Source: Pelagomonas calceolata
Lineage: Eukaryota
Assembly: GCA_918797485.1 (NCBI GenBank)
Contig: CAKKNE010000003.1
Coordinates: forward strand, 4,526,001-4,590,000
DNA length: 64,000 nucleotides
Reading direction: 5' to 3'
Under the pieces are notes generated by a model, which saw nothing but the letters and a program-made list of their open reading frames with translations, searched no databases and had not been told where the DNA came from. The translations under genes and the position numbers were made by a program. Below, piece after piece: positions 73 to 27,105 of this stretch. Each line of letters begins with the position of its first letter. Within the stretch, counting starts at the first letter, position 1.

Positions 73-679
73 TAGAGAGAGAAACCTACTAGCCCTTCCT
101 ATCCTAGATATGTATCTCCCACTCTCTAATATTTGAGTCTATACATCGAGTGTCAAAAGCACTACGGTGTAACAACAGTTCACTATAAAACACTCTCGTA
201 GTCAGGTTGGCCCAGCCCTCGGCTGGTGAGCTAAGACCCTGCTACTATACCGTGACATAACGCTGCGACATACTCTTGCTAGGTTATGGGCCCACAGGGT
301 TCTGCCTATTGACGTAGAGTGTTTTACAGTGAATGCCTAGACAAGAAAAAACACCTAAAAAGAAATCCAAAAAGAAATCACCCCAAAAGAGCGAAGAAAG
401 TGAATACCCAGCAATGGATCAAGCTGAAATGAATCGGCTCATACAAAACGCGGTCGAACACGTACAAGCTGAGCTCCAGCAGAAACACGAAGAACGTATC
501 AAAGCGCTGGAAGCAAACCGCGAAGCGCAAATCAAAGTATACATCGACTCGGAGTGTCAAAAGCACTACGGTGTAACAACAGTTCACTATAAAACACTCT
601 CGTAGTCAGGTTGGCCCAGCCCTCGGCTGGTGAGCTAAGACCCTGCTACTCTACATAACGCTGCGACATACTCTTGCTA
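73..679 (+). mobile_element. Internally deleted Ty1/copia LTR retrotransposon (5' LTR 73-281, PBS 282-294, gag 5' remnant, partial 3' LTR ~538-679)
   Basis: 5-bp TSD ATAGG at 68-72 and 680-684; LTR TAGAGAGAG...CTCTTGCTA; PBS GGTTATGGGCCCA; ORF 333-605 starts as a gag-like basic/coiled-coil peptide and runs into the LTR. Confidence 0.9.
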
Positions 680-1118
680 ATAGGGGCAAAATTTAATAGA
701 CGGATAGTCTACTGCGGTATGTTTCTAGTGGACTCTTGGGAGGCTAGTAGGCCGGTAGTGTTTTATGGTAGCAAAAGTGGGCTAATCGGCGACGTAATAG
801 TGTGGTTCACGTCGGTCCTCAGGCTCTAATTTTTGGGATTCGAGCCTGAGTTCCCAGCCACCGTGACTTGGCCGGCGGCGATTTTGGCCAGGGCAGCCAC
901 ATACGTACGCAGGTCCAAACTCGTACCCCTCCATGGAGCTACACACTTTATTTCCCCCTGCATCGCAATGCTCTCTCGGCCCCGCCGTTCCGACGAGGAC
1001 TTTTTCCAGCTTGGACGACGCAGACTCATATTCCGCCCAAAACATTAGTCCTTTTTCGACTATCACGAGACCCGACTCACCGGAATCCACTTTCACCAAG
1101 GTCATGCCCCTACTGCTA

Positions 1119-2156
1119 CTATGGCTCGCTTGCGTTGGTGGCCACAAGTAACGGATACATCGCAAAGATCTCACGAAGGCGGCGGCTGAAGTCGCGCAGG
1201 ATCGGCGCGTTCCGGCGGTCGCGCGCGTAATACGCCCGCCGCATCGCCGTCCGGTTCCGTAAATCGTCGAGAACGACCCAGTTCTTGTGGCAGGAATTGA
1301 CTTGGCACGTCGGCCGTTGGTCCAGCCGCGCCAGCTTTTCGATCTTCACGTCGCGGCTGTCCGATTCCTCGATGTAACCGTGACTCACGATGACGTCGTG
1401 CGCCAAGCGAATCAAATCCTCGTAGGTTCTCTGGTGGTAGTGAACGATTGCGAGGCCCTCTGCTTCCGGTGCGGACCGGTTGTGCCAGGCATGGCTCCCG
1501 AGGTTAAAGAATCGCCGTCGGTAGCGTGCCCCACTGTAGATCTGCTTATGCACGCCCGCGCGCGACATCTTGGCATGCTCGCCGTCGGTCGGCGGGCCGC
1601 GTTGGATCGCATCGACGTCGAACGCCCACGCCGTGCGCAGCGTGTCCGAGACGCGCGCCGGCGGGAGGCCGAGCCGCGACGTCGTCACGTCGGGCGCGCG
1701 CGCGCCCTGTGCCACGTGCGCGACGAACTCGTCGGTGTCGACCTTGATGATCCAGTCGTATCGCGCCTTGATCTCGTCGATCCAGCGCGCGAGGTTGTCT
1801 TCGATGTGGTTCAGATCGACGAGGCTGTGGCGGAGGTGGATGGGATAGCTCGCCGTCACGTCCTGGAGGTGGTCTTTTTGGGCGCCCGTGCTGCCGTCGA
1901 ACACGTAAAGGTGCTCGAAACCGTACACGTGCCCGTGCCACGCGAGCCACCGCGACGCCAGCGGCCAGTCGTCCTTCGTCATAATGACGAGGGCGACCTC
2001 GGCGCGGGACGCGCACGCCGGAGCCGTCACGACCGACAGCCTGGATTGCCGACCGACCAAGATGCCCAGTCCCAGGGCGATGCCCAGTGCCGACGCTGCT
2101 ATTATTCTCCAATGGGTAATGCCTCGACACGACGACACACTGGCGGCTGCATGCAT
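1119..2156 (-). CDS. Type II membrane glycosyltransferase, GT2-like (Glyco_tranf_2_4 type)
   Basis: N-terminal TM; WLAWHGHVYGFEHLYVFDGST; WIIKVDTDEF (DxD); start set at ATG 2156 because the upstream ORF part is LTR-derived. Confidence 0.75.
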   Translation of the reverse strand: MHAAASVSSCRGITHWRIIAASALGIALGLGILVGRQSRLSVVTAPACASRAEVALVIMTKDDWPLASRWLAWHGHVYGFEHLYVFDGSTGAQKDHLQDVTASYPIHLRHSLVDLNHIEDNLARWIDEIKARYDWIIKVDTDEFVAHVAQGARAPDVTTSRLGLPPARVSDTLRTAWAFDVDAIQRGPPTDGEHAKMSRAGVHKQIYSGARYRRRFFNLGSHAWHNRSAPEAEGLAIVHYHQRTYEDLIRLAHDVIVSHGYIEESDSRDVKIEKLARLDQRPTCQVNSCHKNWVVLDDLRNRTAMRRAYYARDRRNAPILRDFSRRLREIFAMYPLLVATNASEP

Positions 2157-2239
2157 CGTTCTTTTAAACCGTCGAGATGATGAATATATCCCCAAAAGGC
2201 ACACGGAGCTCCACACTCTGTTTCCCCCTGCATCGCAAA

Positions 2240-2674
2240 AATGGACGCTCGTGTCCAGGGGGAATAGAGAAACCCTGGTAGCGTAAGAGTATGTCGCAGC
2301 GTTATGTAGAGTAGCAGGGTCCCAGCACACCAGCCAAAGGCTGTGCCTACCTACGGTACCTCACGGTACCTACGGTACCTAACTACGAGAGTGTTTTATA
2401 GCAAATTGATACATCGTAGTGCAACGTAGAGAGAAACCTACTAGCCCTCCCTACCCTAGATATGTATCTCCCACTCTCTAAATTTGAGTCTATACATCGA
2501 GTGTCTATCGCACTACGGTGTAAACACAATTCAAGTTCAACTTGAAGTTTGCTATAAAACACTCTCCGAGGCTCGTACTACTAGTAGTAGTTCGGTTGGC
2601 CCAGCCTTTGGCTGGTGAGCTACGAGCCTGTAGGACCCTGCTACTTTACATAACGCTACGACATACTCTTGCTA
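2240..2674. mobile_element. Copia LTR mosaic: PPT plus LTR start (+), inverted LTR 3' part (~2285-2410, -), full LTR 2427-2674 (+)
   Basis: Direct sequence match to LTR 73-281 and to the PPT context at 9786-9808. Confidence 0.85.
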
Positions 2675-2850
2675 AGGTCAACCGTGACTGGTGCAGGGTA
2701 CCGGTACCGGTACCGGTACCGTAGGTATCAAATAAGTTACATCGGTGCACGGGTTTTTGCCGTAGTCTTTTTGCAATTGCACCCAACATGCGGACCGCGG
2801 GGACACTCCTCTTGGCAGTTTTTTACGCCTCACCAGCGGCACATTTCTAA

Positions 2851-4315
2851 ATGCGCATCGCTCCCCTCGTCGCACTCCTTCTTCCCGGCTGCCGCGGCGG
2901 TGGCAAGGCCTCCAAGGCGCTGCTGCGGCAGTTCTGCGCGCGCGGCCTGCTCGCGGTGGACGATAGGCGTGGCGACGCGTGCGTCGATGCAGCGGGCACA
3001 TTCGCGGGCTGCCCGCCGGGCTGCGCGGCGACGACGCGAGGCGGCGGCGGCGCGCGCTGTGTTCACAAGAAACGTCCCTGCGTGGCGCCGGCGCGGACGG
3101 CGTGCGCGCGCGACGGCTGGTGGCTCGAGCAAAGCGACGAGGCGGCGCGCGGCGACGTGTGCCGCAAGCCCGGCGGCGGCTTCGAGTGCCCCGCCGACTG
3201 CGAAAAGCGGAACGCGACGTGCGTCGGCGGCGACAGACGGCCCTGCCGGTCGGCGGCGCGGCCGCCCCGGCGCGCGTGCGCCGATTGCGCCGAGGCGTGG
3301 GACGCGCCGCTCACGGCGGGACCGGCGCTCGCGCGGCGCGTCGACGCGGAGTTCGTCGTGAGCCACTGCGGCTACGACCTGAGGTGGCTCGCCGACGCGA
3401 TGGCGGAGCTGCGCGCCTGCGGCGTCGACGTCCGGCGCACGACCGTCTACTCCAAGTGCGGCCGGCCGCCGCGCAACGCGCCGAACGGGTCGATCCTCGA
3501 GACGCTGCCGAACGTCGGGCGCTGCGACCACGCCTACGCGATGCACGCGGCGCGGCGGTACGACCGCCTCGAGCCGCTGGTCTTCTTCCTCAAGGACTCG
3601 TCGCGCTACGGGTCGCGCGCGGACTACCGCCGGCTCAACGTTGGCCTCTGCGGCGTCGCGCGCGCCGCGGCGGGGCCCGTCGGCTTTGGCTGCGGCCGCC
3701 GGCCCTACGTCGACGGCTCCGCGTACCACTGGGCGCCCGCGCTGCTCGCCTACAGCCTCATCGAGGTCCACGCGCACGCGTGGGACCAGGCGGCGCGGCC
3801 CGCGGCGGCGTTGGACTTCTTTGGGCCGTTCCCGACGCTGGGCGCGCTCCTCGCGGCGACACCTGGCGTCCTGCGCGCTGACGAGCTCCAGCGACGCGCC
3901 GTCGTGCCCGTCTGCTACGGCGGCACGTTCGCCGCAGTGTGGATATCATTGAGCGCGTAGTGACCCTTTCGCCACGACGCCATCGACGAAGGCACCGTAA
4001 TTTTAAGTTCCGCACAGGTTTGCCGCGCGCCGGGCCTCCGTCCGCCGCCGCGCCCGCGCCGCCTACGCGGCGCTCGCGGCGCGCCTTACGCGTGGCGACA
4101 ATATCATGGAGGGTTCCATGGTCGAGAGGCTCTGGGCAGCGCTCCTCGCGCCGCGGCACCCCGACCCGCACGCGCGGGCCCGGCACCTCTGCGCTGCCAC
4201 GCGCCACTTCGCCCGGCCCCACGGGTATGCCGGCATGCTCGTCGGCTGCAGCTGCTCGGCGCCCCGGGGGGACTTGCGGACCTGCGCCGCGAGGCATTCG
4301 CGCGTGGCGACGTAG
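2851..4315 (+). CDS. Secreted protein with Cys-rich repeats and DUF3431-like domain; intron 3927-4017
   Basis: Signal peptide; ETLPNVGRCDHAY and VFFLKD motifs; removing GT..AG intron 3927-4017 joins the frame to MEGSMVERLW (ORF 4106-4315). Confidence 0.75.
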
Positions 4316-4448
4316 TTTGGTGTGTACTTGGTCTTTTCATACTAGTAGATGACTCCCTGCTCTTCCCCTCTCTTTTTCTTGGGATATTTCTTCCTTAATA
4401 GCGTCGTGCCGATGTTAAGGAGTTGTGCGTCCTTTGGCGAGAGAGATA

Positions 4449-4535
4449 TGAAGTAGAGCCCATTTTGCATCAAAACGGACGCTCACGGGAAAACCCGTTC
4501 GCTAACCGTTTGGATGCAAAATGAGCTCTACTTCA
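4449..4535. repeat. Short hairpin element with core CATCAAAACGG...
   Basis: Near-perfect inverted arms TGAAGTAGAGCCCATTTTGCATC / GATGCAAAATGAGCTCTACTTCA; core matches 52605-52709. Confidence 0.8.
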
Positions 4536-4639
4536 ATTATATTACGACCGAAATCCATGGTTCTGGGTGGCCGATTTTGGGGGTCTAATGATTTCTAGTA
4601 TATTTCATGACTAGGGGGGTATTTCGAATATATAGTTGA

Positions 4640-4705
4640 GTTAGACCCGCCACGTCATCAAAACGGTTCACTGCGTTCACCGTTTAGACGCGTGGCGAGT
4701 CTAAC
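4640..4705. repeat. Short hairpin element with related core
   Basis: Arms GTTAGACCCGCCACG / CGTGGCGAGTCTAAC around CATCAAAACGG...CCGTTT. Confidence 0.65.
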
Positions 4706-5084
4706 CACGTAATCATATTAGATTACGCTTATATTATAATTTTCACGACAGTTTCAATATATTTAAACCTTCGATAATTTTGCACGCACAAGATCTTATA
4801 ATCATTCCGCCAAGATTCCGATTAAACTTCAATAAGATCTTGGAGTTCATCAAGGGGATAGATTTGATGATGATGACACTTTGGCCATAAAATTCACCAC
4901 ATCCTGCATCAACTTCAAGAAACTGTTGGGTGGTAGAGCGTCCTCGAGGCCGTGGGCTTGGCCCCGCCGCCGATGGTTCGGGGGCGAGGTGTTGTTAACG
5001 GTCTTTTGGGAACTAACACCTTGGACTCATGCGGTAAAACCCGTAGCTAAGCGAAAACAGTCCCACGCCCTAGCGCGACCTCGC

Positions 5085-5323
5085 AGGACCACGCGGCCGC
5101 CCTGCTCAAGAATCGCCTTTACCGTCGCTGGGGCATCAAGACCGCGCGCGAGTACGCCCGGATCAAGATCGACGGCCTCCGGCTCGTCGGCGGCAACCCG
5201 GACTTCACCAACGCGCCCGGGCACGGCAACGACGACACACGCTTCTACGACCGGCAGCAAGCTTACGTACACGCTCGCGGGGGATAGCTCCCCCGACACC
5301 CCTCCCTAGGCGCCTGACTATAG
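5085..5323 (+). mobile_element. 3' fragment of a putative non-LTR retroelement
   Basis: Matches 24608-24835; encodes ORF end ...LYRRWGIKTAREYARIKIDGLRLVGG...HARGG*. Confidence 0.6.
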
Positions 5324-5470
5324 GTATTTGAAACCCATCGTGGCGCCGCCGGCCGGCCTGTCGGCGCGTGCGCACTCCTCGTGGTGGGATTTGTGGTAGT
5401 GAGGTGGTAGTCAGCTCTGCATGCCTAGGGCCCAACTTGGATAGATGGACAGCTTGAACTAAGACTTTTC

Positions 5471-8101: not shown

Positions 8102-9339
8102 CTGGGCAATAATTAAATAGGCCGTGGGCAGCCCCTGCCTCTAGACTAGAATACTAGAATGCCTACGCGAGTCCCCTGCGCGAGCGCTGGACGTCGGATC
8201 CGCTTTGTTGCGTTCCTCGTGTACTCTGATGCATCTGTGCCGCTTGGCGCAGCCCCGGAGGCGCTGCGTGCGTTGTGAGAGGCCTAAGTGCACCTAGGCT
8301 CATCGGAGCCAGTTTTCGCCGGCGGCGCGCGTTTCCGCCGCCCGCGACCCTCCCCCGGCGTCCACCGAGTCGCGGCGGCCGGGCCACAGGCCGGCGGTGC
8401 TCCACGGCTCGGTTTCTTCGACTTGCGCGGCAACGAATTGGTTGCATATACCCGCTGCGCGCAGGCCTCCTCGCGGCGCGTTGAACCTCGCCGGCGCCGG
8501 CGGCCAGTCCGAGCCCGAAACAAAGACAAGAGACATTCTTGCATCTTGATGGCGGGTCGAGCCCGGAACACGGACGGCACCCATCCTCGGGCATCGAGTG
8601 GTGCGCGTTCGGTGGTATCCGGCCCGTTTCCTGAAGTTTTGCCGCCGGCATGGCGGCGAGCCTCATTTGCCTGCGACCGGACCGACCCTACGGAGCTCGC
8701 GGAACTACTCGTCGGTCTCGACCTAGGAGGCGTCGGGGACGGCGGCATGCCGCCCCTCGCAACCTTCGTCGGGCCGGCCGAGCTTTCGTAGGCCCTCCGA
8801 ATCGCCGGGGCATCCATTGAACCCATTAGTTCCGTTCCGACGAGTTATTGTCAAGGGTCGTCTGGGCTGGGTCGGAGCCGAGCTCCCCACCAAAAAATAT
8901 GTGTCGAGGGCATGCCCTCAATCATTGTCAAAGGCCTGGTGTGCGAGGGCATCTCTCTCAGCACTTGATTTCCGGCTCGTCGTAAAAGAGGAGCCAGCGG
9001 CCAGTTCCACATCCTGACGGGGGTCGTCCCAAAAAGAGGGGGGGGGCGTGCGAGTCCATGCGACTCAGCCCTTGCGTCCTAGTCCAGCCGGACGGGTGGG
9101 CCCGGGGGGAGCGGGAGGGGTACGGGGAACCCTGCGACGTAACTAGCCTGAGCCTAGTAGTAAGTAGTAAAGTGAACTTGGTGCACCACAGAGCCACTTT
9201 TAGCCTGTCCCGCCATAGCTTTTTGTACGATTACCGGCGGCTGCTCGTCTAGATACCTGACCACGTTTGGTTAGATAGGGTTCGTTACGGATCCGAGTCC
9301 CCGGCCCGGGGCCGCGGCGGCCGCTCGTACATTAAGCAA

Positions 9340-9422
9340 ACCATCTGTTTTGGTTTTCTACCGCTTCTAGGCATTCACTGTAAAAACACTCTTCCGAGTC
9401 GTCAGTAGGCGCCGGCGGAACG
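9340..9422 (-). mobile_element. Copia leader/gag-start fragment
   Basis: Reverse complement of ~298-360 (AGAGTGTTTTACAGTGAATGCCTAGA). Confidence 0.65.
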
Positions 9423-9511
9423 TTCAAATTATCTATAGTATGATAGTACTAGTACCTACGGTACTACCATGGTACCTACGGTACCTACGGTACCTACGGT
9501 ACCGTGACTAC

Positions 9512-10009
9512 TAGAGAGAGAAACCTACTAGCCCTTCCTACCCTAGATATGTATCTCCCACTCTCTAATATTTGAGTCTATACATCGAGTGTCAAAAGCA
9601 CTACGGACGGTCCATTTGAAGGAGTTTACTGACTTTCCGAAAAAGGACGAGAAGGATCCAACAACAGTATTTACGGATATTCATTTCGAGAAGAAGTCTG
9701 TTGCTTATGAAGCCTATCACTTGTCACATGGACTTTGCCTGTGAATAGACTGAGTTGATACATCCTCTAGTGGAAGCGCATCTAGTGGACGCTCGCGTCC
9801 AGGGGGAGTAGAGAGAGAAACCTACTAGCCCTTCCTACCCTAGATATGTATCTCCCACTCTCTAATATTTGAGTCTATACATCGAGTGTCAAAAGCACTA
9901 CGGTGTAACAACAGTTCACTATAAAACACTCTTGCAGTCAGGCCTATCAGCTCTAAGCTGGTTAGCTAGGACCCTGCTACTTACATAACGCTGCGACATA
10001 CTCTTGCTA
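9512..10009 (+). mobile_element. Internally deleted copia element (partial 5' LTR 9512-9606, internal 3' end, PPT 9801-9808, 3' LTR 9809-10009)
   Basis: 5-bp TSD ACTAC at 9507-9511 and 10010-10014; AGGGGGAG directly precedes the 201-bp LTR. Confidence 0.9.
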
Positions 10010-10061
10010 ACTACCGTAGGTACCTACGGTACCGTAGGTACCGTACTATAGTACTAGTAGT

Positions 10062-10274
10062 AGTAGCCTGAGGGTCCTAGCTCACTGGCACCAGCCAGAG
10101 GCTGCCAGTGGGCCAAGCCAACTACGAGAGTGTTTTATTATAAACTGGTTTACACTGTAGCGTCGGTAGACACCCAGCGTATAGACTCAAACTTAGAGAG
10201 TGGGAGATACATATCTAGCCTATACTAGTAATCTAGGGTACCTACGGTAGGAAGGGCTAGAGGTTTCTCTCTCA
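10062..10274 (-). mobile_element. Diverged partial copia LTR
   Basis: Reverse complement of the LTR, carrying several 6-bp insertions. Confidence 0.85.
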
Positions 10275-10366
10275 ACCTTGACGCCAGCCGGCAGTCCGTC
10301 CGCTGTAACTCTACTCGAGCGTCAATTTCTGCCGGGCCGACACGTCGCATCCCACACGGATTCAAC

Positions 10367-13282
10367 ATGGGCAGCGTGCTCTTCTGGTGCATCGCGGTCA
10401 ATGCAGCTGCGGCAGGCTGCGGTCGACGCCTCCTCCGTTCCCGGGTGATTGGGCTGATGGCAACGAAAGACGACGCGAAGGTGATGGCAGAGTGGCTGGA
10501 GCATAACATGGGTTCGCTGGCTGGGCTCGCCGTGTTTGACTCATCGCGTGGGACGGAGACGCAGTCGGTGATTGAAGCGTACGTGACGCGCTGCGGCGCC
10601 AACATCACGTACCACCGCGAGGACGAGCTCGCGGCGCCACTGGTCTCGCATTCGGACCAGGCGGTGCGGTACTGGCCGCTCCGCGCGCTCCGCGAGCGCT
10701 GGGGCGTCGGGCGCTGGGTGATGGTGGCGCACGCGGACGAATTCTGGTACCACGAGCCGGAGTTGGTGGCACGCGCTGCGGACACGCGCATGGAAGCGGG
10801 TTTGATGCCCCGCTGTCAGGTCGTCTCGTGGTACGCGCCGCAGGTCGTGCCCCACCCTTCGGAGTATGAGCGCTACATAAGGTCCAGGCGCCAACCGGTG
10901 CAGACGCTCTTTCAGCATTTCCACACGGACGCGCCGGGCGAACTCGTGAAGTTGGAGGCGCGACTGTTCCTCGACGACGGTCGCGACTATGTTGCGAACT
11001 CGACTGCACGACAGGGAACTGTACCCGCCGGCCTTACACCCTGTCGCCTGACGGGCCCGGCTTACCTGCACTACAAGGTAGTGGACCCGGACCCGGCAGT
11101 ATATGACTCACAGGGCCGGCACAGGTCGCATTGGACTGGACACGGCGCGCCCGGCGTCGGCTTCGGGCATGACGTGTCGTCGATCCGAGATTTTTTCGTC
11201 GAACACTTCCGTCGCTTCACCCGCGTGTACCGGTTTGAAGGCTGCCTCTCGGCGCTGGTCCCCGAATTTCCAGGGCTCGCCGACTTTGAGCCGCTACGAG
11301 TCGACCGCGTTTGGCCACTCGCGGTGGGAGATGGCACCGCCTGCCCAACAACACGGCTCCTCGTCGAGGTCGACGCCGCGGCGGCTGCCTACGACCAGTG
11401 GCGCGCGTCGCACTTCGACCGGCGGTTCGCCGGCGTGCGTCGCTGTCGCGTGGGCGGTCTAGAGTACCGCATCGCGGGCGGCCATAAGCGCCTCGGCAAC
11501 TGCGTCTCGACGGTTGACCACCACGCCGTCGGCTTCGACGCCGCGCCCGTGGTGCCGTTCGTGTGCCCGAGGGGCAAGCTCCGGATCCTCGGCGAGCCCG
11601 GGTCCCACAGCGAGAAGCACGTCTGCGCGCTCGACGCGCTCATCGCGCAGCCGCGGCCCTGCGTATTTATCTCGGTCGGCAGTTCGGGGAACTTCGTCTT
11701 CGAGGCGGAGATTGCGCGCCTGACACCGGCCCGGTGCGCGATCGAGACGTTCGACTGCACCGGCACTTGGTCCGTGCCCAAGGCGCTTGTCGGGCGGGTT
11801 CGCCTTCACCAGGTCTGCCTCGACACCGTCGACCACTGGGGTCCGTCGCCGGCGACGTCGGAGCACCTCCGGCGGATGATGACGCCGCCCGCCGTCGAAT
11901 TCCTAAGTTGGCCGTCGCTCCTTCGGCGCGCCGGATTGCCACCCGGCGTCCCACCTACCTTTCTGAAGATGGACTGCGAGGGCTGCGAGGCGACGTTCTT
12001 CCGCGCGCTCGCGCGCGCACCGCCCGCGCTCCGGCAGACGCTGCCACCTCAGATCGCCGTCGAAGTCCACTACCCCTTCAGAGAGGACAAATGGGCGGCA
12101 TTCTTTCGTCGTGTCTCGCCGTTTGCACGCTGGCCGCTCGAAGAGTTTGTCGCCGAGCTCCGCGCCGAACTCGGATACTTCATCGCGGACCGAAACGACT
12201 GCGCCCCACAATGCTGCTCCGAACTGCTTCTCGCAAGGACTCTCGCCCCCCCGGCACCGTCGACGGCGATCATGTCCGCCGCGTTAGCGCGCGACGACAC
12301 GAGATGCCCGCCGGGCCCGCGAGGCGGCGTCGCCGCGCTCCAGGCGCTCGAGCTCGGAACAGGGGAGGCGGATGTGCTGCTCTCAATCGTATTGCCCACG
12401 TACAACGCGCAACCGGGCGACGTACGCCGGCACGTCGTGGCCGTCGCGCGCGCGTCGCGCTCTGCCGTGGAGCTCGTCGTCGTCGACGACGGCTCAGCGC
12501 CGGCGCTTACGCCCGCGGAGGTCGGGCTGGATCGCACTGCATCGAAGATTCGCTACAGGTTCGCCCGTATTACGGTCGACATTCCCTGGAACGTCGTCGG
12601 CGCGAAGAATCTCGGTGCAGCCCTCGCGCGTGGCCGGTGGCTCCTGTTCCTCGACGCCGACATCGTCGCGCCCGCCGGCGCCATCGACGCTATGGTGGGT
12701 CGACTCGAGGCTGGGGGTGATCTCGCGGCTGGCGACGCCTGGGTGTTCGCGCGGCGGCAGGCCGGGGGCCAAATCATGGCCCGAGGACCGCACCCGGCTG
12801 TGGTACTCCTCCGGCGCTATGACTTTTGGGCACGCGTCGGAGGAATGGCCGAGGACTTTGCCGGGTCATGGGGCACGGAAGACACCCTCTTGAAAATGCA
12901 AGTGAAACTCTTGACACCTCGCCCCACCTTCGAGCCCGGCATCGTTCTTCCCGTCGCGCCCAAAGTCATTCTTGACCAGCACCGCTTGCGCTCGAGACCA
13001 AATTCCACTGGAAAACCTGCGCGCAATGGCACGCGCAACCGGTTGCTTCTCATCGATCTCACGAGAGAACGTGTCGAAAATAGCGCCACCTATGACCCGC
13101 TTGTGCAGTGTGTCCTCCGATTCCCGTACGAGCTCTTCGAAGAAGGTGGCGCGCCGGTAGTACTGGTCAACGCCAAGGTGCGCCGCGTGTCCACGTCAGC
13201 GACGACAGTGTATTGGACCGTCGTCACTACTGTGCTTTTGTTCATCGTCATGAGGTGCTGGAACGCACGCAATATCCACTGA
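10367..13282 (+). CDS. Tri-domain protein: GT2-like + SAM methyltransferase (Methyltransf_22/FkbM-like) + GT2/GT7-like, C-terminal TM
   Basis: 971-aa ORF; VMVAHADEFW; EKHVC..FISVGSSGNFVFE..TFDCT..FLKMDCEGCE; VVVDDGS, LFLDAD, GGMAEDFAGSWGTED. Confidence 0.8.
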   Translation: MGSVLFWCIAVNAAAAGCGRRLLRSRVIGLMATKDDAKVMAEWLEHNMGSLAGLAVFDSSRGTETQSVIEAYVTRCGANITYHREDELAAPLVSHSDQAVRYWPLRALRERWGVGRWVMVAHADEFWYHEPELVARAADTRMEAGLMPRCQVVSWYAPQVVPHPSEYERYIRSRRQPVQTLFQHFHTDAPGELVKLEARLFLDDGRDYVANSTARQGTVPAGLTPCRLTGPAYLHYKVVDPDPAVYDSQGRHRSHWTGHGAPGVGFGHDVSSIRDFFVEHFRRFTRVYRFEGCLSALVPEFPGLADFEPLRVDRVWPLAVGDGTACPTTRLLVEVDAAAAAYDQWRASHFDRRFAGVRRCRVGGLEYRIAGGHKRLGNCVSTVDHHAVGFDAAPVVPFVCPRGKLRILGEPGSHSEKHVCALDALIAQPRPCVFISVGSSGNFVFEAEIARLTPARCAIETFDCTGTWSVPKALVGRVRLHQVCLDTVDHWGPSPATSEHLRRMMTPPAVEFLSWPSLLRRAGLPPGVPPTFLKMDCEGCEATFFRALARAPPALRQTLPPQIAVEVHYPFREDKWAAFFRRVSPFARWPLEEFVAELRAELGYFIADRNDCAPQCCSELLLARTLAPPAPSTAIMSAALARDDTRCPPGPRGGVAALQALELGTGEADVLLSIVLPTYNAQPGDVRRHVVAVARASRSAVELVVVDDGSAPALTPAEVGLDRTASKIRYRFARITVDIPWNVVGAKNLGAALARGRWLLFLDADIVAPAGAIDAMVGRLEAGGDLAAGDAWVFARRQAGGQIMARGPHPAVVLLRRYDFWARVGGMAEDFAGSWGTEDTLLKMQVKLLTPRPTFEPGIVLPVAPKVILDQHRLRSRPNSTGKPARNGTRNRLLLIDLTRERVENSATYDPLVQCVLRFPYELFEEGGAPVVLVNAKVRRVSTSATTVYWTVVTTVLLFIVMRCWNARNIH

Positions 13283-13744
13283 GAGGGGACTGATGGATCT
13301 TGTCCCTGTCGGCGAGCCTCGTGGCCCTCAGCGCCACGTCTCTCAATTATGATACCGGAATGCGAACCTTGGCTGCCCACATTCCTGCAAAGTGTTATGG
13401 GGCACATGAGACAGCTGAAAGCTAGGCCATCCTAGAAACAAAATCAACATCCAACTTTGTGTATTATCCGAGTCGGCTCCGGTGAACATACCATCGGAAA
13501 CTTACCACTGGCAAGGAAATCAAGAAATCGAGCCGCCGCGCGAAGGCAGCAAACCCTGCGCGAGTGCGCCCACGACCCGTCGCGGGCGAAACAATTCTGG
13601 AACGTGGTGCTAGAAAACCGATGTTACCAACCCCGGGGGCCCTGGCTTCAGGCAGGTTCATCCCGGGGCCCGAACCTGTATGCATGTGTAGTGAACAAGG
13701 ATCTTTCCAACAATTTAGAGGAGAAGTCCGCAACATTATAAGGT

Positions 13745-13996
13745 CTATGGTTCTTTTTGTGTTTTTTGTTTCCTTTTCTACTGCTTCTAGACATTCACTG
13801 TAACTGAAAACTGCAATGGAAATACACGTCTAGTAGGATCCCAAGGTTCAACTGAGACGTATCCAAGCACAACCCGTACTAGGCGGAGCCTCGTGGGCCC
13901 ATAACCGTGACCTAGCAAGAGTATGTCGCAGCGTTATGTAAAGTAGTAGGGTCCTAGCTCACCAGCCAGAGGCTGGGCCAACTTGAAGCCAACTAC
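13745..13996 (-). mobile_element. Copia 5' LTR end, PBS and gag start
   Basis: TGGGCCCATAACC (interrupted by a 6-bp insertion) next to TAGCAAGAGTATG; TCTAGACATTCACTGTAA matches the gag start. Confidence 0.85.
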
Positions 13997-14287
13997 TAGC
14001 CTAAGTAGGCGCCGTAAAAACACCGGGGTGAACCTAAACTTGAAGTAAGTTCACTTCAGGCGCGTCTCTAGTGCGCGTGGTCCGGGGGCCCTGGGGTTGG
14101 CGCCCGTTGTGGCAACGGCCTCTTTTCCCACTTATAAATCTCCCAAATTTTATCTTAGCTTCACTATCCTAGTCTCATTTATCTTAGTTAAATACCCGGA
14201 TAGAATAGGCCTAGTGAATACGGTACCAGCTTGTACCGGTACTGCTAGCGGGGATCATCTTGGCTAGATCTTGGCTGCCCGCGCAAG

Positions 14288-15809: not shown

Positions 15810-15879
15810 CTGGGGGGAACAGCGGGAAACGACCCTACAAAGCCCAAGTGAGGCTAGCCCCATAAGTAACCTACATGTC

Positions 15880-18747: not shown

Positions 18748-19176
18748 CCTCCAGTCCTTTTCCTCGTCCATGGATAAAAGTAGCATAGGAATTTTTATAC
18801 TTCATGTCCCTTGCTGACGGATGACACATAAAATATACTAAGGGCCCCACTGGCATGCCTTTGCTGGAGTAAGTGCTCAGGCTGAGGCTCAGAGGCTGGA
18901 GTGTTGCTCTTGGGAAGCCGGGGGCGTGGGGCGAAGCTGCCAAGCGGCGTGGTGTGGAGCTCTGCCTCGCCTCCTCAGTCCTCGATTTCTAATTTATTTA
19001 TTGCTTTGCTAAAGCTAGCTGCCTAGCCACCTCGCCAACTTGAACGACGCGGGGCCTGCTTGACCGCACCGCACGCCCGTCCCGCCCCGGCCCTCATACA
19101 CTGTCTCGCCCCTAGTGTTAGATTTACTTATCATATGATTCACTGGCACGTTTATTTATCTGGACAGGTCCCGGAC

Positions 19177-21801
19177 TCAAGCACCCCTAGAGGGAATATC
19201 GCCGGGCAGTCCGCCGCGAAGGACAGCTACATACTGGCGGGCGATGTCGTCAATATTGTGATGAAGCGGCGCGCCGACGACTGCAGCGAAGTAAGCGTAG
19301 CGTTCTTTAATGGTGCGGAGCGCGCTCATCAATTCGTCGTCGGTTTTAAAGGGCACGCCACCGAGTCCGACGGCCTCTGGGTGGCCTCCTTCGTCGCGAT
19401 AGGCGACGGGAAGGCCGACGGCGAGCGCCTCGACGAGCGAGTTGGAGGCTGGCTCGCGCCGCGAGGCGGCGATGAAAATGTCATGTTCGGCGAGCGCCGC
19501 AGCAATCTCGGCAGAGGATTGTGGCGGCACAACCGTCACGCAGGGCCGATGGGTAGCAAGGCGAAACTCGCGGCTCCGCGAGCCTATGAACGTGATGTTG
19601 AACTCTTCGCAGTCGATGGCGCGCGAAAGTGCGGCGAGCGTGTCGGCGCCCTTGACGAAACCATTGGCGTGCGACGTGGCGATGAGGCGCATCGGGGTGC
19701 GCGGCGCCGCGCAGGGCGGCCGCTGCTTGAAGATCGCCGGGTCCGCGGCATTTCGGATGATGACGCGGGGCCGATATCTACTGTCGCCGCCACCGAGACT
19801 TCCTGGGTATGTCGTGTCCCAGGCATGCCACGAGAAGAGCGACTGGTGGATGGAAACGTCGGCGTAGAGGCCGTTCATAAGGCGGACGATGCGGTCCTGG
19901 CTTTGGTAAGACGAGGTGTTGGCTCTGTTGATAATGTTGGGGCCATCGATGCGATGCGCAACGATAAACGGCTTACGATCTCCCTGCGGAGTCTTTTTTA
20001 CGAATTTCAGGTAGGCCCGCGCGAAGTCGGCCGTGTTGAAAGTGTGCGCGTTAATGAGAATCGCCGTCGTCTCTTTGGTGATCTTGTTCAACTGGACCTT
20101 CTTGATGAGGTCGTCCTGGCGGCGCAGCGCGTTAATGAGCGCTGCGAGGAACTGGTTGCCGCCGCCCCACGGCGCTTCGTGGAAGACGTGCCAAACACTA
20201 ACGACGAGCCTTTTGGCGCGCGACCGCGCCGCGCGGAGCGCCTCGTATTCGAATTTCCCTGTGCCGGCACCAGGTGGTTTGCGGAGCACGATCTCCCGTT
20301 CGGCGGCGACCGTCGCCGCGAGCAGGCCGTCGTCGATGCCGTAGTCGTCGGCGCAGCCGCGGCGAGTTCGCGTCTTTTCGTCCTCGATGGTCGCGTATTG
20401 GAGCGTCGTATATCGCGCCTTGAGCGCGGCGACGTCGATTGTGCACCCCTTGGACGACGAAGGTGGGTTGCGCATATATTTGTGGATTGACGTCGCATCG
20501 TACCGCACCTCTTCGGGGTGATGTACCATGAGGTACGTCGAGTAGAGCTCGTACTCCGAGAAGGTGGACGCGAGCTGCTTGCATTGGTCCCGCGTCTCGC
20601 ACGCGCGCTTCCGCGAGGCCCAGTCAAGGACTACGTCGTAGAACGAGGTCGCGTGGTCACGCGCCACGCGCTCGAAGATGCTCGCCAGCATGGCGCGTAC
20701 GCGGTGCCGCGAAAACACCATCCAATGCGCCACCGCCGTGCGGCCGTTGGCCAGGGCGCAGGGCCATTTGCCGAGGAGGTCGTGCGTCGTCGGGCCGTAG
20801 TCGCGAAACCACATCTTGGAATTATTTCCCGCGAAGAACACCGCGCGGAGGACCGGGTCTGAGGACGAATACGTTTTCGTCTGGAGCCTCGCCCTTATAT
20901 TTCCCTCGGCCCACTCGAGTGGAAAAAATTGGGCCGTCGGCGCGCGGATCGACGCTGCTCGGACGCGCTGGAGCACCTCCAGCTCTTGCAGGAAGATGTT
21001 GTCCGAGTCTATCACTACGAAGTGATCGGAGAGGCCGACGTCGATGAGGCTCACGAAGAGTTTGGCGAACTGCTGCACGAACCATCCGCCGTGGCGCCCG
21101 GACGTCGCCAGGTGGGGGTACGCCGCAACCATTTCCACGCCGCTTCGGCCGCTGAGCGCGTGAACGGGAAGGCAGTAGACGTGCGGACCAAGCGACGTGA
21201 GGTATCGGCACGACACGTCCGATTCGACCAGGAGATAAATGTTTCGCACGCGGGGTCGTATGTACTTGCGAATAGATTTCAAACGAGCTGCTGTGTTGGT
21301 GCTCGTCACCAGGAGCGGCACCACCGCGTCGAACTCAAAATCTTCACCAAGGCTTTCGACCGCAATCGAATCCACGCTTTCCGATCCCAAGTTTATCGCA
21401 GTGGCTGTCATGTTCGCTTGGGCCGCCGTTCCCCAGCTCGGACGCCAGTGCGCCTCCCAGCACCTCCGGGATTGCTCGCTGGCTTCGCGCGCCTGAGCTT
21501 GGGCCGGACGTGAGCCGCACCGTAACACGTTTCGTGCGGCCGGCAACGCCGGATCCGTGTCCTCGTCGGCCGCCGCACCACATACTGATGCCGACCGCGT
21601 GGGCGAGGGCCGGCGGCGGCGGCGCGCAGGCTGGCGGCGCAGCCATGAAGCCGCCGCAGGCACGCCCAGCAGTCTTGCGAGGCTCGCACCGAGCGCGGTG
21701 AGGAGCATCGCTGTCCAGCAGACGAGCCTCCGCGGCGCCACAGTGCGGCTGCCCTTCTTCATGTTGCCACTCAACACAATGACATTGTCATGGCAGGACA
21801 A
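19177..21801 (-). CDS. DUF6492-like GT-A domain + GT4-like (GT-B) glycosyltransferase fusion
   Basis: WFVQQFAKL, FVVIDSD, FSEYELYSTYL; DIFIAASRREPASNSLVEALAVGLPV (EX7E). Confidence 0.75.
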   Translation of the reverse strand: MSCHDNVIVLSGNMKKGSRTVAPRRLVCWTAMLLTALGASLARLLGVPAAASWLRRQPARRRRRPSPTRSASVCGAAADEDTDPALPAARNVLRCGSRPAQAQAREASEQSRRCWEAHWRPSWGTAAQANMTATAINLGSESVDSIAVESLGEDFEFDAVVPLLVTSTNTAARLKSIRKYIRPRVRNIYLLVESDVSCRYLTSLGPHVYCLPVHALSGRSGVEMVAAYPHLATSGRHGGWFVQQFAKLFVSLIDVGLSDHFVVIDSDNIFLQELEVLQRVRAASIRAPTAQFFPLEWAEGNIRARLQTKTYSSSDPVLRAVFFAGNNSKMWFRDYGPTTHDLLGKWPCALANGRTAVAHWMVFSRHRVRAMLASIFERVARDHATSFYDVVLDWASRKRACETRDQCKQLASTFSEYELYSTYLMVHHPEEVRYDATSIHKYMRNPPSSSKGCTIDVAALKARYTTLQYATIEDEKTRTRRGCADDYGIDDGLLAATVAAEREIVLRKPPGAGTGKFEYEALRAARSRAKRLVVSVWHVFHEAPWGGGNQFLAALINALRRQDDLIKKVQLNKITKETTAILINAHTFNTADFARAYLKFVKKTPQGDRKPFIVAHRIDGPNIINRANTSSYQSQDRIVRLMNGLYADVSIHQSLFSWHAWDTTYPGSLGGGDSRYRPRVIIRNAADPAIFKQRPPCAAPRTPMRLIATSHANGFVKGADTLAALSRAIDCEEFNITFIGSRSREFRLATHRPCVTVVPPQSSAEIAAALAEHDIFIAASRREPASNSLVEALAVGLPVAYRDEGGHPEAVGLGGVPFKTDDELMSALRTIKERYAYFAAVVGAPLHHNIDDIARQYVAVLRGGLPGDIPSRGA

Positions 21802-21991
21802 ATGGCCAAAAAGTTACTTCATTCAATCCCCTGCTGGTTCCAGAGCTCCCGTAGGTCTAGAGGCGCGTATATTATGACTGACTCCCCATGTGGGGTGAGG
21901 CGGGTTTCTACGAGTGTGCGCCCTGCCTACCGTGACGCTAGGGAAAATATACTGCTGGGTCTAACTGCTGGGGTATTGTCTTGGCCTGTTG

Positions 21992-22598
21992 CTAGGTTGC
22001 CATTTACCCGACCGTGACTCGACTCATGTAGCGCATGCGCTACATGAGTAAACGGGCTATATGGGTAAATGGGCTATATAGGTATTTGGGTTATATGGGC
22101 GTTTGGGTTATAACCCAAATCCCAAATAACCCAAATACCCATATAGCCCAAACACCCATATAACCCAAATACATACCCATATAGCCCATTTACTCATGTA
22201 GCGCATGCGCTACATGAGTCTCGGAGGGGTTATTAACTCCAATCGCGGCCCGGGGTCAGTAACCCGGGTAATTACCCGTTAGTACGGGTTATATTAACCC
22301 TATTAACCCGGGATCTTATGGACCGTCCGGACGCCCGCCGCTTAACACGGGGGCGGACCCCAAATTTGAGATTCGAGTTCCTAGCCACTTTCCGGGGGCG
22401 ATTTTGGCTGTGGGGTCCCAAAGGGTCCCTTTGTACGCCCCGAGAGGCTGAGGCCCGCGCCAGTGGCCAGTGAGGCCCCCTCCCCTACCCCTCTATAAGA
22501 TCCTGAGGTAAATAATCCGTACTAACCGGTAATTACCCGGGTTATTAACCCCGGGCGGCGCCAGGGGTAAATAGCCCCTCAGGTAAATGCCAACCTAG
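21992..22598. mobile_element. hAT-like MITE (TIR CTAGGTTGCCATTTACC) carrying a nested foldback element
   Basis: TIRs; subterminal TAACCCGG repeats; right half matches 26950-27105; TSD degenerate. Confidence 0.8.
22022..22219. repeat. Foldback element with palindromic ends
   Basis: 28-bp perfect palindrome ACTCATGTAGCGCATGCGCTACATGAGT at both ends; inverted TGGG(C/T)TATA arrays inside; CTCG duplicated on both sides. Confidence 0.85.
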
Positions 22599-22843
22599 GC
22601 CCTTAGGACGGGTAAGGGTGCGGGTGACTCGTGTAGGGCGGGGGCACGCGGGGCTGACCCCCCGGCCCCTCTAGGTACAAGGAGAAGTACCGCGGCGATG
22701 CTGCGGCCTTTAAGAACGGCGCCGATGATACCGACGGCGACGCGGAATCATCCTAAGAGCACGGGCATCCAGCTCGTCCTACCATCACTCGAGGACCACC
22801 ACGATGGGGCGGAGTTCGGTCCCGGGCACTCAACCTCACCATC

Positions 22844-24175
22844 TCATTGTTTGCTGGAACAATCGAAGTACATTGGTCTGCAATGATTTGAGCCCGAATC
22901 TTTATTGAAGAAAATTTCGGTGCATTCATTGTTCACATACGCAAGTGTCTGAGAGCGCAGCATTGCCGAGGATCCAAGATTGGGCGAGTTATAAGGGTTT
23001 GCTGCGGCCTTGGCCGTGGAGAGTTCAGCACAGAAGTCCATCATGATCGCCCCCGGACGATTGAGCGAGTTTAGGATAAGCCTCATGACGGACAGGGGGT
23101 CAGGAACATGTTCAAGCACAGTCAACACAATGGCCACGTCAAACGCTTGCGCTGGCAGGCTCGGTAGAGACTCGCCGTCTGCCTCGACCACCCTGATCGA
23201 AGATTGCATTCCTCTCTCCAATAGGAGATTCTTGAGGCGCCAGGCCCCGAAGTACAGGTGCTCACCAGAAATATCCACCACTGTTGCCGACTTGATTGGC
23301 ACACTGCAAGCTGTTTTTCCTCCCAATATATTTGCATCGTGAAATCCTCCGCCACCGAGCCTAAATGAGCCAGGAGCGATGCCCGCACCATATTCAAGGA
23401 CTCGGACCTCCTCCGAGGGGCGCCGCTGAAGGAGGTGGCATAGATTGTCGTACTTGAGTGCCGTGCTTCTTAGGTTATGGAATGACTGCCGGAATATCTC
23501 CCATGTTCCGAAGGCTTGGTAATGTCGCTGCTGGTCTATAGTTCGGTTGCGCTCGATAGAGTGCCAGGTACAGCAGAGGGCGCGCCACCGGAACGGGTAC
23601 GCTTTCGTGCACCTTGGACTGGGATAATCCGCATAGGTGGGCGCCCTTTGCTTGGGGTGCAGTTGCGCCGCCCTACAATATCGCGACGTCCGGTACCCGT
23701 CAACGCACGCGCTCCGATAGATCACGTCCTTGGACACAGAGTCGACGCAGATCTCCGTCCCGGCAACCCTCACGGTGGACACTCCGAACCAATCTTCAAT
23801 GGCACCTTTCCAATCCAGTGCCCAAGTCTTTACCGACCCCCGAGAACCAGAGTTGTGCCCGCCGTTGCCGAGCCGGCACGCCTCCAATCGTTTGTCCTCT
23901 TGGTCGAGCCGCATCCATCCTAAAGAACGCTCCGAACTCTGCATTTCGGCCGACGCCCAGCCCACTGGCATGTCCCTCGGCGTCCTGCCTTGTCGACACG
24001 CCGGCTGGGACAACTCGTCGGCTCTCCGTACCTGATCCTCCCTCGCTAGTGCGGTGAGCTCCCCCGCAGGCGCGAGGCGCAGGATGAAATAGATGGCAGT
24101 GCCCACTGCTAGGCCTAAGACAATGTGCTTGGACTGCACGCGCCTCCCGACCGCAGCACCGACACCGGAGGCCAT
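22844..24175 (-). CDS. Type II membrane class I SAM methyltransferase
   Basis: TM after MASGVG; VLEYGAGIAPG; FDVAIVLTVLEHVPDP. Confidence 0.75.
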   Translation of the reverse strand: MASGVGAAVGRRVQSKHIVLGLAVGTAIYFILRLAPAGELTALAREDQVRRADELSQPACRQGRTPRDMPVGWASAEMQSSERSLGWMRLDQEDKRLEACRLGNGGHNSGSRGSVKTWALDWKGAIEDWFGVSTVRVAGTEICVDSVSKDVIYRSACVDGYRTSRYCRAAQLHPKQRAPTYADYPSPRCTKAYPFRWRALCCTWHSIERNRTIDQQRHYQAFGTWEIFRQSFHNLRSTALKYDNLCHLLQRRPSEEVRVLEYGAGIAPGSFRLGGGGFHDANILGGKTACSVPIKSATVVDISGEHLYFGAWRLKNLLLERGMQSSIRVVEADGESLPSLPAQAFDVAIVLTVLEHVPDPLSVMRLILNSLNRPGAIMMDFCAELSTAKAAANPYNSPNLGSSAMLRSQTLAYVNNECTEIFFNKDSGSNHCRPMYFDCSSKQ

Positions 24176-24428
24176 GCTACCACGCCACAACACCCATTCG
24201 ATGTGTCCTTCTCGCCTAGACAACGTATTGTCCGAAGCACGGGGGCAGCGCGCGCGGCATTCGGTCGATATCAAGCTTGAATTGTGCAGCTGTCTGCGGC
24301 CGGGCTGCAAAAGCTACAGAAATTTTCAATCACACGCTGCGCTCCCCTTGGCTTTTCTCTCGCTCATTAACTTGCAGCTATAGATGCACGCTATGTGCCT
24401 ATAATACCCTATTTATATTATTTATATT

Positions 24429-24855
24429 TTATTAACTAAGCTAACACCCCTCTAGGCGCGCGCCCCCGCAACCCGAATTGACTATAGCTATTCCTTTATT
24501 AACTAAGCTTACGTACACGCTCGCGGGGGATAGCTCCCCCGTCACCCCTCTAGGCGCGCGCCCCCGCAACCCGAATTGACTATAGCTATTCCTTATTAAC
24601 TAAGGCTGCCTTTACCGTCGCTGGGGCATCAAGACGGCGCGCGAGTACGCCCGGATCAAGATCGACGGCCTCCGGCTCGTCGGCGGCAACCCGGACTTCA
24701 CCAACGCGCCCGGGCACGGCGACGACGACGCACGCTTCTACGACCGGCAGCAAGCTTACGTACACGCTCGCGGGGGATAGCTCCCCCGTCACCCCTCTAG
24801 GCGCGCGCCCCCGCAACCCGAATTGACTATAGCTATTTCTCTCTTATTAACTAAG
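24429..24855 (+). mobile_element. Three tandem 5'-truncated copies of a putative non-LTR retroelement
   Basis: Common 3' end GAATTGACTATAGCTATT; TTATTAACTAAG at 24429, 24496, 24593 and 24844. Confidence 0.75.
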
Positions 24856-25476
24856 GATAATTAAAAAAGTTATTTTATGGTGCGGGTAATTTTAGTAAAA
24901 CGGGCTGAATCGGGAAAATACCGGCGTATGGGGCTGCTTTTGGCCCCAGGCACATTGCTGGGGGGTGCACGGGGCGGGGGACACCTGAGTGGTAATGGGC
25001 CGTGGCGGTGGGTCGGCCCGAGGGGGGGTGCGCCGCGCGCGCTGTTTCTAGTTTTAGGAGGAGCCTCTGAGTGCCATATTTTTTACTATTATACCTGTCA
25101 CGGTTATATACTAGTAATATCGAATTCAAGTTATAGTAGAACGCGGACGGCCCAGGTCACAAGCTCTTCGTGGCTGATGTACCCGCTGGCCGGGGTGATT
25201 CCGTCAAATTTGCACCCCGCGCTGCATGCAGCCCACGGACATCATAAGGAACAGTTGACCCAGCGGGACCTTCCCCCCTTTCCCCCGTCTTCCCTTCAAG
25301 TTTCATTTGCGGGTCCGGTTTTTTCGGAGTTTGCCAGATTATGCACTTCTGTGCCAGTATTGAACATACCGCAGTACTAATTTCTACGTCGATAGCGTAC
25401 TTTTTTTTTACATGTCGAGCAAGCGTACTTTTTTTAGTGGTACTCATTCGGAGTCATTCGGGGGAGTGACCTGGTA

Positions 25477-26616
25477 ATGGCGCTATGTTGGCTTGCTTGC
25501 TTCGCTGCAGTCATGATTTTCCAGGCGGGTATGCGCCAGGGTGCTGCGACTCCTGATGGAGGCCGCAATGAACCACCGTTAAATATGTCTACCGCCGAAT
25601 GCGAGGTGGCCGCTTGGGACCAATCCTGCAGGATTTGGCTGAGTGGGACACCGGCACTGGCCAGTGCGCTTATGGGGCGTGGGCACGGTGCACGCACCTA
25701 TATTTGTGGCGGCAATGCAAGCAAAGTCCCGCGGGCCCAATGCTATTCACGCGGAGAAAGATTTCGATGGCTTAAGCGCGCGTGGCATTTGCTGAAAGGC
25801 ACGACGATCCTACTCCTTGGCGATAGTATTTCCATGGAGCACTACTTCGCACTGCTTTGCGAATTGCGTGAGTTTTCGCTCCTTGGAGGAAGTGAGGTGC
25901 CGCCACTGGTGCCGCCACGCCTCCAAATCGTCAATGAAAGTGGTGTGAGCATGCACTGTGCACGCTTTGAGAAGGCGCTTCCATCCGTCTGTTATGCGCC
26001 AGAAGATGCGCTTCACTGCGGCCTCTTTAATACTATTGGGCTCTGTCCAATGTTTAACAAACAATGCCGTTTAAAGCCAGAGGTTCCATGTTTCAAGCCT
26101 GCACCACCCGGCTCGCGTGGCTACATCCTCGAGCGGCTGTCCAGAATATTCATGGCCGCAGCGGGTGATTCCCGAGAACTACTTATCGTCATGAACGCGG
26201 GATTGCATTATTCGCACAACTTGACACTCCTTCATGATATCACTGCAATGCAGCTCAATCTATTTGCTAGTCTGCCACAAAAACTTCGGCCACGCATCTT
26301 CTGGCGCGAGACAGCTGCACAGCACTGGAATACAAGTGCTGGCATTTATATGGGTAAAATCAGCAGCAGGCAGTGCGTTAACCTCCCACTAAGCATGGTG
26401 CGCGACCCTGGTACCAGCAAAGCGAACATTTTCAACCGCGCAACTGAGCCGGTGGTCTCAGCCAGTCGCGATGTGACCATACTGAGGACGTGGGCACAGT
26501 CGGCCGCATTCTGGCGAGGCCACAAAAACGGCGACTGTACGCACTACTGCCTCGAGTCGGGCCTCTTCGACAGCTGGACAGACATGCTGTGTCAGGCGCT
26601 GCTCAGTAAAATTTGA
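25477..26616 (+). CDS. TBL/PC-esterase (SGNH-like) polysaccharide O-acetyltransferase-like protein
   Basis: Signal anchor; LLLGDS; MNAGLHY; IFWRET; DCTHYC (DxxH). Confidence 0.8.
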   Translation: MALCWLACFAAVMIFQAGMRQGAATPDGGRNEPPLNMSTAECEVAAWDQSCRIWLSGTPALASALMGRGHGARTYICGGNASKVPRAQCYSRGERFRWLKRAWHLLKGTTILLLGDSISMEHYFALLCELREFSLLGGSEVPPLVPPRLQIVNESGVSMHCARFEKALPSVCYAPEDALHCGLFNTIGLCPMFNKQCRLKPEVPCFKPAPPGSRGYILERLSRIFMAAAGDSRELLIVMNAGLHYSHNLTLLHDITAMQLNLFASLPQKLRPRIFWRETAAQHWNTSAGIYMGKISSRQCVNLPLSMVRDPGTSKANIFNRATEPVVSASRDVTILRTWAQSAAFWRGHKNGDCTHYCLESGLFDSWTDMLCQALLSKI

Positions 26617-26644
26617 CCTAATTTGGCCTAGATGTGCCTGTCTC

Positions 26645-27105
26645 CTAGGTTGCCATTAACCGGTTAATAACCGGTAATTTGCCCATTATCACTCCTCGGA
26701 GGGGATCCGGGGTAAATAACCCGCTCAATAACCCGACGGGTTTTCGACTAAACCCGTTTAGTGAGATTAGCGAAAGACCCCCCCGGAAGAGCGGATTGAA
26801 GTGAACTTACTTTAGGTTCACCCCGGTGTTTTTACGGCGCCTACTTAGCGCCGGGCTTGATCCACTTGGATAAGCAGAAAGATACGGGATATAGGGAAAT
26901 ATCAGCTACGGGCCCAAGGCAAGTACCAAGTCATGTGGCCCGGCGCGGCCCAGGCCCGCGCCAGTGGCCCGTGAGGCCCCCTCCCCTACCCCTCTATAAG
27001 ATCCTGAGGTAAATAACCCGTACTAACCGGTAATTACCCGGGTTATTAACCCCGGGCCCGGGCGGCGCCAGGGGTAAATAACCCCTCAGGTAAATGGCAA
27101 CCTAG
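26645..27105. mobile_element. hAT-like MITE
   Basis: TIR CTAGGTTGCCATT / AATGGCAACCTAG; perfect 8-bp TSD CCTGTCTC at 26637-26644 and 27106-27113. Confidence 0.9.

Follow-up and report, generated by a model that had tools for sequence, protein, structure and literature searches.

Rule-bound six-base insertions in the spacers of Pelagomonas calceolata, likely excision footprints of a C...G-ended DNA transposon

Introduction

In hAT, MULE, Transib and RAG systems, flank hairpins, palindromic (P) nucleotides and joining through microhomology are established features (PMC5499845, PMC5873905), and hairpin footprints as such are already known. The spacers of a 64,000-nucleotide stretch of the pelagophyte Pelagomonas calceolata (GCA_918797485.1, contig CAKKNE010000003.1, positions 4,526,001 to 4,590,000; hereafter the window) carry insertions that obey a single rule, in which a dinucleotide XY, the short allele, becomes XY-C-revcomp(XY)-G-XY (revcomp, reverse complement), a “rule octamer” or scar with a net gain of six bases. 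Such insertions are genuine and heritable, lie in non-coding DNA and segregate among individuals; they are likely to be the excision footprints of a cut-and-paste DNA transposon with C...G ends and a 2-bp duplication of almost any target, most likely from the CACTA/EnSpm-Plavaka-Mirage branch.

Target-site duplications (TSDs) are 8 bp long for Ac, and 2 bp for the Chlamydomonas elements Tcr1 and Tcr3. The latter two, classed as Kyakuja and as EnSpm superfamily respectively (PMC9940879), resemble the present case as algal cut-and-paste elements. Excision of Ac/Ds (hAT) likewise leaves a palindromic insertion at the joint, through opened flank hairpins and microhomology, but there the complement of the neighbouring flank base forms the centre of the palindrome, and 28 kinds of footprint occurred among 128 clones (PMC5873905); the scar described here has a 2-bp target, a fixed C/G centre and one dominant visible product. 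Neither the 8-bp TSD of hAT elements (5–7 bp in variants) nor their flank-complement centre is seen. With RAG, Transib and AanRAGL the likeness lies in a flank hairpin opened by a host nuclease, and a rare flush 5-bp scar fits their 5-bp TSD (PMC5499845, PMC9435367), a length also found for an active RAG-like transposon in another pelagophyte (PMC9435367). Their flush nick leaves no extra C, however, whereas the main scar class has one, together with a 2-bp target, so that only the separate rare class corresponds to a 5-bp TSD and flush hairpin. The original prediction had cited hAT and RAG, from whose models the present geometry differs.

The CMCT clade (CACTA/EnSpm, Plavaka, Mirage, Chapaev, Transib) has C...G termini and 2–5-bp TSDs, matching the C and G of the scars and their 2-, 3-, 4- and 5-bp classes (PMC12730594). 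CMCT termini are mostly CA..TG, and PlavakaB TSDs measure 2 or 3 bp (PMC12730594); a 2–3-bp target duplication with little preference can be deduced from the scars, which show the terminal C and G only. CACTA footprints in the papers examined are short and varied, in contrast to the one dominant product here. Tc1/mariner elements share the 2-bp TSD and retained terminal bases, and TA-n-TA arrays in the same spacers resemble their footprints, but they use TA targets only and leave no inverted target copy; here 14 of the 16 octamers were seen as indels, each with an inverted copy of its target. The exact scar was not found in the literature searched, which covered PMC9481584 and a minor part of the subscription literature, and it may have been described before.

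Rule octamers are in excess in non-coding DNA

In the window, GC-rich genes (glycosyltransferases, methyltransferases, an elongase, a splicing factor) alternate with spacers of lower GC, and its DNA was matched in isolate sequencing runs and numerous marine metagenomes. A metagenome scan with a 17-base pattern from a long terminal repeat (LTR) supplied 122 further loci (L001–L122), of which 18 were dropped from density counts (three unrelated, L001, L033 and L064, and 15 redundant), leaving the window and 104 loci with 222 kb of non-coding and 200 kb of coding DNA. Controls were five k-let schemes of 60 shuffles each for the window, and 1.34 Mb of bacterial DNA from a prokaryote-genome scan that gave chance matches only. 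Scans of viral contigs returned 0 and 13 loci, the 13 being unrelated, and Rfam gave no matches over window positions 1–40000.

The window contains 159 rule octamers. About 74 CG/GC octamers lie mainly inside GC-rich genes and are largely chance, and CG/GC-only dinucleotides were left out of the main count, which comprises the 67 octamers with A or T in XY; shuffle means were 8.1–10.9, with a maximum of 19. All 12 A/T-containing octamers were individually in excess (3–8 observed against 0.1–1.5 expected each), and 58 of the 67 lie outside long open reading frames (ORFs). When the spacer bases C and G were replaced by each of 15 other pairs, 2–18 octamers were found. Across the non-coding set there were 666 octamers against 38 in shuffles, an excess of ~630, compared with only 2-fold in the bacterial control. 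The original observation is confirmed: all nine octamers named there lie at the coordinates given, and scars extend to further spacers, beyond the proposed 249..27062 to at least 53167.

The centre is always C then G, independent of the flank, and rule sites show no flanking sequence preference. Scar density was 3.3 per kb in repeat-derived and 2.9 per kb in unique spacer DNA, a level of about 3 per kb that may exceed the genome average because the loci were picked for carrying the LTR. Versions with one mismatch are likewise in excess, and the scar-making process has therefore been long-running. Scars also cluster: 52 nested events were counted against 10 in simulation, nested 14-mers numbered 79 against ~7 expected and were distributed across all offsets, and pair density was 2.5-fold below 40 bases apart, approaching 1 by 240 bases. 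At 140–160 bases the non-coding DNA shows a second, weak rise that could reflect nucleosome spacing. Scars are sparse within 100 bases upstream of ORF starts.

Scars are derived insertions that segregate

At eight of the nine named sites the short XY allele was found exactly, with 5–9-base flanks, in 3–17 sister copies; site 249 differs by a neighbouring substitution, and alignment confirmed it. Site 27055 reads equally well as a plain CCCGGG duplication. Six was the commonest indel length above one. Among repeat copies of the window, four of five six-base indel rows obey the rule, the fifth being a shifted alignment of site 249; overall, 59 of 90 rows do so, with 14 of the 16 octamers represented, and about 18 of the remaining 31 are, by eye, rule sites whose alignment has shifted. 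Under stricter settings 49 of 82 rows obeyed the rule, and seven of 12 twelve-base indels resolve into two rule events. Six-base indels thus mostly follow the rule, and a majority of rule-breaking ones, on which the original prediction would have fallen, was not found.

Between two haplotypes compared over 7.5 kb there were roughly 11 scar events against 57 substitutions. L034 carries six insertions (five of +6, one of +3) within ~220 bases, compared with none in orthologous L019, with few substitutions between them (the asymmetry has a post hoc p of about 0.03). Within 45 bases L046 has four insertions, one of them accompanied by a substitution; three sister copies lack these insertions, and at one LTR site three haplotypes each carry separately gained events. 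Short-read contigs from two isolate runs, one of which may be the window's own source, span scar sites unchanged, and a metagenome contig matches window 10488–13986 at 99.5% with a single 1-base indel; at site 10103, contigs of runs X1, X2 and X11 omit the six bases. The scars are not an assembly artefact, because independent short-read and metagenome contigs carry them.

Target dinucleotides and three-base products

The six non-palindromic dinucleotide classes show a near-uniform excess of 3.5–4.9 per 1000, compared with 2.4 for AT, 3.3 for TA, 0.3 for GC and −0.1 for CG (p=5e-21 for +6 excess, palindromic against other targets). Where scars of other classes contain CpG, their level is undiminished. 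By computation, whole-tail pairing over five bases around a C.C mismatch is possible for palindromic XY only. If the scars arise from such tails, fewer +6 and some +3 products (XY-C-XY or XY-G-XY) are therefore predicted for these targets. After 64 rows at arrays or LTR edges were dropped, +3 and +6 events numbered 3 and 2 at AT, CG and GC, against 5 and 52 at non-palindromes (p=0.013 without TA); TA targets gave 13 and 3.

Rarer scar classes

Scars with a 3-bp target and the same C and G number 21 against 2 in shuffles, and hits clear of any 2-bp scar number 19, against 0–6 for other spacer pairs. A flush 5-bp class lacking the loop base occurs 9 times against 0.2 expected, verified as an indel at L093:352 against nine short copies, and a flush 4-bp class 10 times against 2.8 expected, verified at L032 9800 against one short copy. 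Other +4, +5, +7 and +8 variants of the main class were not enriched over control spacers, and no hAT-type 8-bp scars were found. Taken together, the 3-bp class and the flush classes of 4 and 5 bp suggest an origin in the CACTA/Chapaev/Transib (CMC) clade, and the examples at L093 352, L032 9800 and window 2564 suggest Transib/RAG-like, Chapaev-like and CACTA-like families in one genome.

Coding DNA

In 200 kb of coding DNA there were 41 rule octamers against 33.9 +/- 3.8 expected, and the nine inside window ORFs are about chance level. One of these, at 30397, was checked at the protein level and is present in all nine aligned variants. No internal 2-residue indels occur among 99 listed population variants of eight window proteins, and no rule events were seen, by eye, among coding indels of orthologous pairs. 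The suggestion that the +6 insertions act as an in-frame mutator finds no support in these counts.

Candidate elements and neighbouring repeats

Searches for terminal inverted repeats and TSDs returned three families only: introners with 8-bp TSDs, MITEs (miniature inverted-repeat transposable elements) with 8-bp TSDs, and a TA-specific family. The introners are ~200 bases long (window 39073–39275, 58012–58198, 60260–60442), the first with an 8-bp TSD and C...G inverted ends, and no 8-bp hairpin scars attributable to them were found; a peak in intron length near 210 bases, and low-GC regions, have been reported for Pelagomonas (PMC9481584). The MITEs (window 26645–27105; L070 9745–10124) are hAT-like. 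Candidate occupied sites were rejected at L054, where the inverted repeat extends further out, at L070, which holds two copies of one repeat, and at L066 5005–8729, the inner part of the TA-specific family; a candidate at L071 19542–19660 is single-copy. At L066 5631–8772, TA-flanked CA...TG inverted ends have between them a copy of the LTR together with an intact bromodomain/BET ORF, seemingly carried as cargo. The 200-base element at window 22021–22220 has a perfect 28-base palindrome at each end and an ambiguous TSD of 2 or 4 bases, and sits in the middle of an older scar; its ends are G...C or A...T rather than C...G, and it was rejected as the source of the scars.

The LTR family, presumably copia-like from primer-binding-site-like (PBS-like) and polypurine-like flanks, has TA at both ends instead of TG...CA, consists mostly of solo LTRs, and often lies within arrays of TA-CGG-TA and TA-CC-TA units. 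Palindromic arrays with a nine-base period and 2–5 base differences between copies (window 2348–2381, 2697–2721, 9452–9503, 10012–10045, 30557–30580, 36446–36515) resemble either accumulated footprints of TA-specific (mariner-type) elements or target duplications of the LTRs. A high-copy repeat at window ~8900–9155, with a bin depth ~80–160 times single copy, has copies that end at 9155 and continue as a tandem hexamer tail into varied flanks; it is possibly a retroelement 3' end. The mostly intron-poor run of glycosyltransferase, methyltransferase, acyl-esterase and sulfotransferase genes, whose spacers are long and rich in repeats (window 1119–35682, 43538–52187) is possibly a cell-surface glycan island.

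Table 1. Scars and LTR copies in the window
Position	Feature	Remarks
72–281, 2428–2674, 9809–10009, 13913–13986, 27126–27319, 30642–30713, 36111–36219	Copia-like LTR copies	Also in loci L001–L122
249..256	+6 scar (AC)	In copia-like LTR copy
546..553	+6 scar (GA)	In LTR fragment
818..867	Spacer with three rule octamers (818, 843, 860)	Run X2 contig spans without differences
2530..2547	18-base insertion	Three stacked +6 events
2564..2574	+8 scar, 3-bp class (XYZ-C-revcomp-G-XYZ)	LTR copies differ here by an 8-base indel
2681..2688	+6 scar	Missing in orthologous haplotype L035
9809..10009 (+)	Scar-free copia-like LTR copy	Ancestral-state reference; family ends TA on both sides
10052..10110	Inverted LTR copy with four rule octamers (10052, 10065, 10083, 10103)	Within 60 bases
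13904..13911	+6 scar (AC)	LTR/PBS-like junction; short allele in 17 sister copies
13980..13987	+6 scar (AA)	In LTR
14037..14044	+6 scar (AA)	In second repeat family
18848..19148	Four rule octamers	Spacer between two genes; run X1 contig without differences
22011..22018	+6 scar nested in older GA scar	Next to 200-base hairpin element that sits in the older scar; judged by eye
25097..25132	Three rule octamers	In a 36-base span
27055..27062	+6 scar (GG/CC)	Lies in 8-bp-TSD MITE; reads equally as CCCGGG duplicated in tandem
30742..30767	Three scars in a chain, overlapping or adjoining (AA, GA, AG)	
35927..53174	Spacer scars past the range first proposed	35927, 36051, 36064, 37730, 37926, 42677, 42699, 47771, 47874, 52773, 53033, 53138, 53167

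Discussion

The absence of flank bias, the loss of +6 products at CG and GC, the +3 products at palindromic targets and the 3-bp class all favour excision of a C...G-ended transposon, as the original prediction had proposed, although this is not proven, because neither an occupied allele nor a transposase was found. Insertion would give XY[C...G]XY. Excision would then nick the non-transferred strand one base inside each end, and the flank would close as a hairpin with C in its loop. A host nuclease of Artemis/SNM1 type may open these hairpins at least two bases past the loop, producing 3' tails of XY-C-revcomp(XY) that could anneal on the inverted dinucleotide, their sole shared homology, with fill-in giving the net +6. 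For a palindromic XY the five-base tails would pair fully around a C.C mismatch, yielding XY-C-XY or XY-G-XY (+3). The published Pelagomonas gene table lists an SNM1-family nuclease and Ku-domain genes. Repeated events within a few tens of bases were probably short local hops into open spacer DNA, and events in genes would have been lost, probably by selection against the inserted element or the scar.

Several observations weigh against this reading. Neither an occupied allele nor a recurrent C...G element with variable 2-bp TSDs was found in the ~420 kb covered, from a genome that measures tens of megabases. Neither 26 ORFs of the window nor 106 of the 130 locus ORFs selected (from 228 long ORFs) gave a transposase family, rescanning 23 ORFs under looser settings gave none either, and five CMC, KDZ or hAT families (PF02992, PF13960, PF18758, PF18759, PF05699) are missing among the entries listed in the gene table, which is repeat-masked and lists at least one Tc1-like transposase. 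The literature examined gave no description of a nick one base inside the element end followed by a hairpin on the flank. The +3 test rests on few non-TA events, and its TA events may stem from TA-specific families; pentamer counts alone, a weak and confounded test, give no clear +3 excess for CG or GC, whose low scar numbers could also be explained by target avoidance or CpG decay. Uniform target use, moreover, holds for visible products only, because precise excisions leave no trace.

It is these gaps, the missing occupied allele, matching element family and transposase, that keep open an improbable route without any inserted element, in which a host or domesticated nuclease makes a break with a 2-base stagger, and the ends are filled, gain one C, close as hairpins and are repaired to the scar. 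The enzyme might be a tamed CMC/RAG-like protein, or a Spo11/topoisomerase VI-type break might be combined with a dCMP transferase, and SPO11 has been reported in Pelagomonas (PMC9481584). The ~630 excess scars without any occupied site, the same bases hit again in the nested 14-mers, and the equal density in repeat-derived and unique spacers agree with such an enzyme; it requires three undemonstrated steps, however, does not readily explain a 3-bp class with the same C/G or flush 4- and 5-bp classes matching known TSD lengths, and, as a matter of fixed hot spots, suits the bursts on one haplotype less well than a mobile agent does.

Direct-inverted-direct triplications are a known product of template switching, and a POLQ-like helicase is listed for Pelagomonas; in such a scheme two bases would be copied inverted at random breaks, either by theta-type end joining or by a polymerase that switches template. 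That C and G are fixed whatever the flank, that the length is fixed, and that the +4, +5, +7 and +8 variants tested show no enrichment make this very improbable. Least credible of all is the reading of the octamers as a regulatory or chromatin motif under selection, as the tail of a repeat or as an artefact of assembly. The high-copy repeat that ends at 9155 seems to have AG-class hexamers in a tandem tail, and the low density upstream of ORF starts would suit a motif, but twelve unrelated octamers have geometry alone in common, the AG class is no higher than others, octamers occur in independent short-read contigs, and the scars are derived insertions segregating between haplotypes; it is the indel and haplotype data that refute this explanation.

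Excision of a C...G-ended transposon remains the likely source. In a bolder version, which we regard as doubtful, a CMC-type element that is rare and uncharacterised, or else a domesticated enzyme without an element, hops serially over tens of bases through open spacer DNA, nicks one base inside its own end ahead of the flank hairpin, and wrote ~2% of the sampled non-coding DNA of this abundant ocean alga as a trail of scars. On that version the scars would record, in nature, how the CACTA clade cleaves DNA and how active transposons are in wild populations. If the footprint reading is true, the scar reveals the cut geometry, a flank hairpin with the first nick one base inside the element, for a branch that lacks a mechanism in the literature examined. 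Excision scars would then be a major type of spacer mutation in this alga, at ~3 per kb, and searches for regulatory motifs will misread the octamers as sites. Such scars could also serve to date and map transposon activity in ocean populations, even though the element itself is hardly ever seen.

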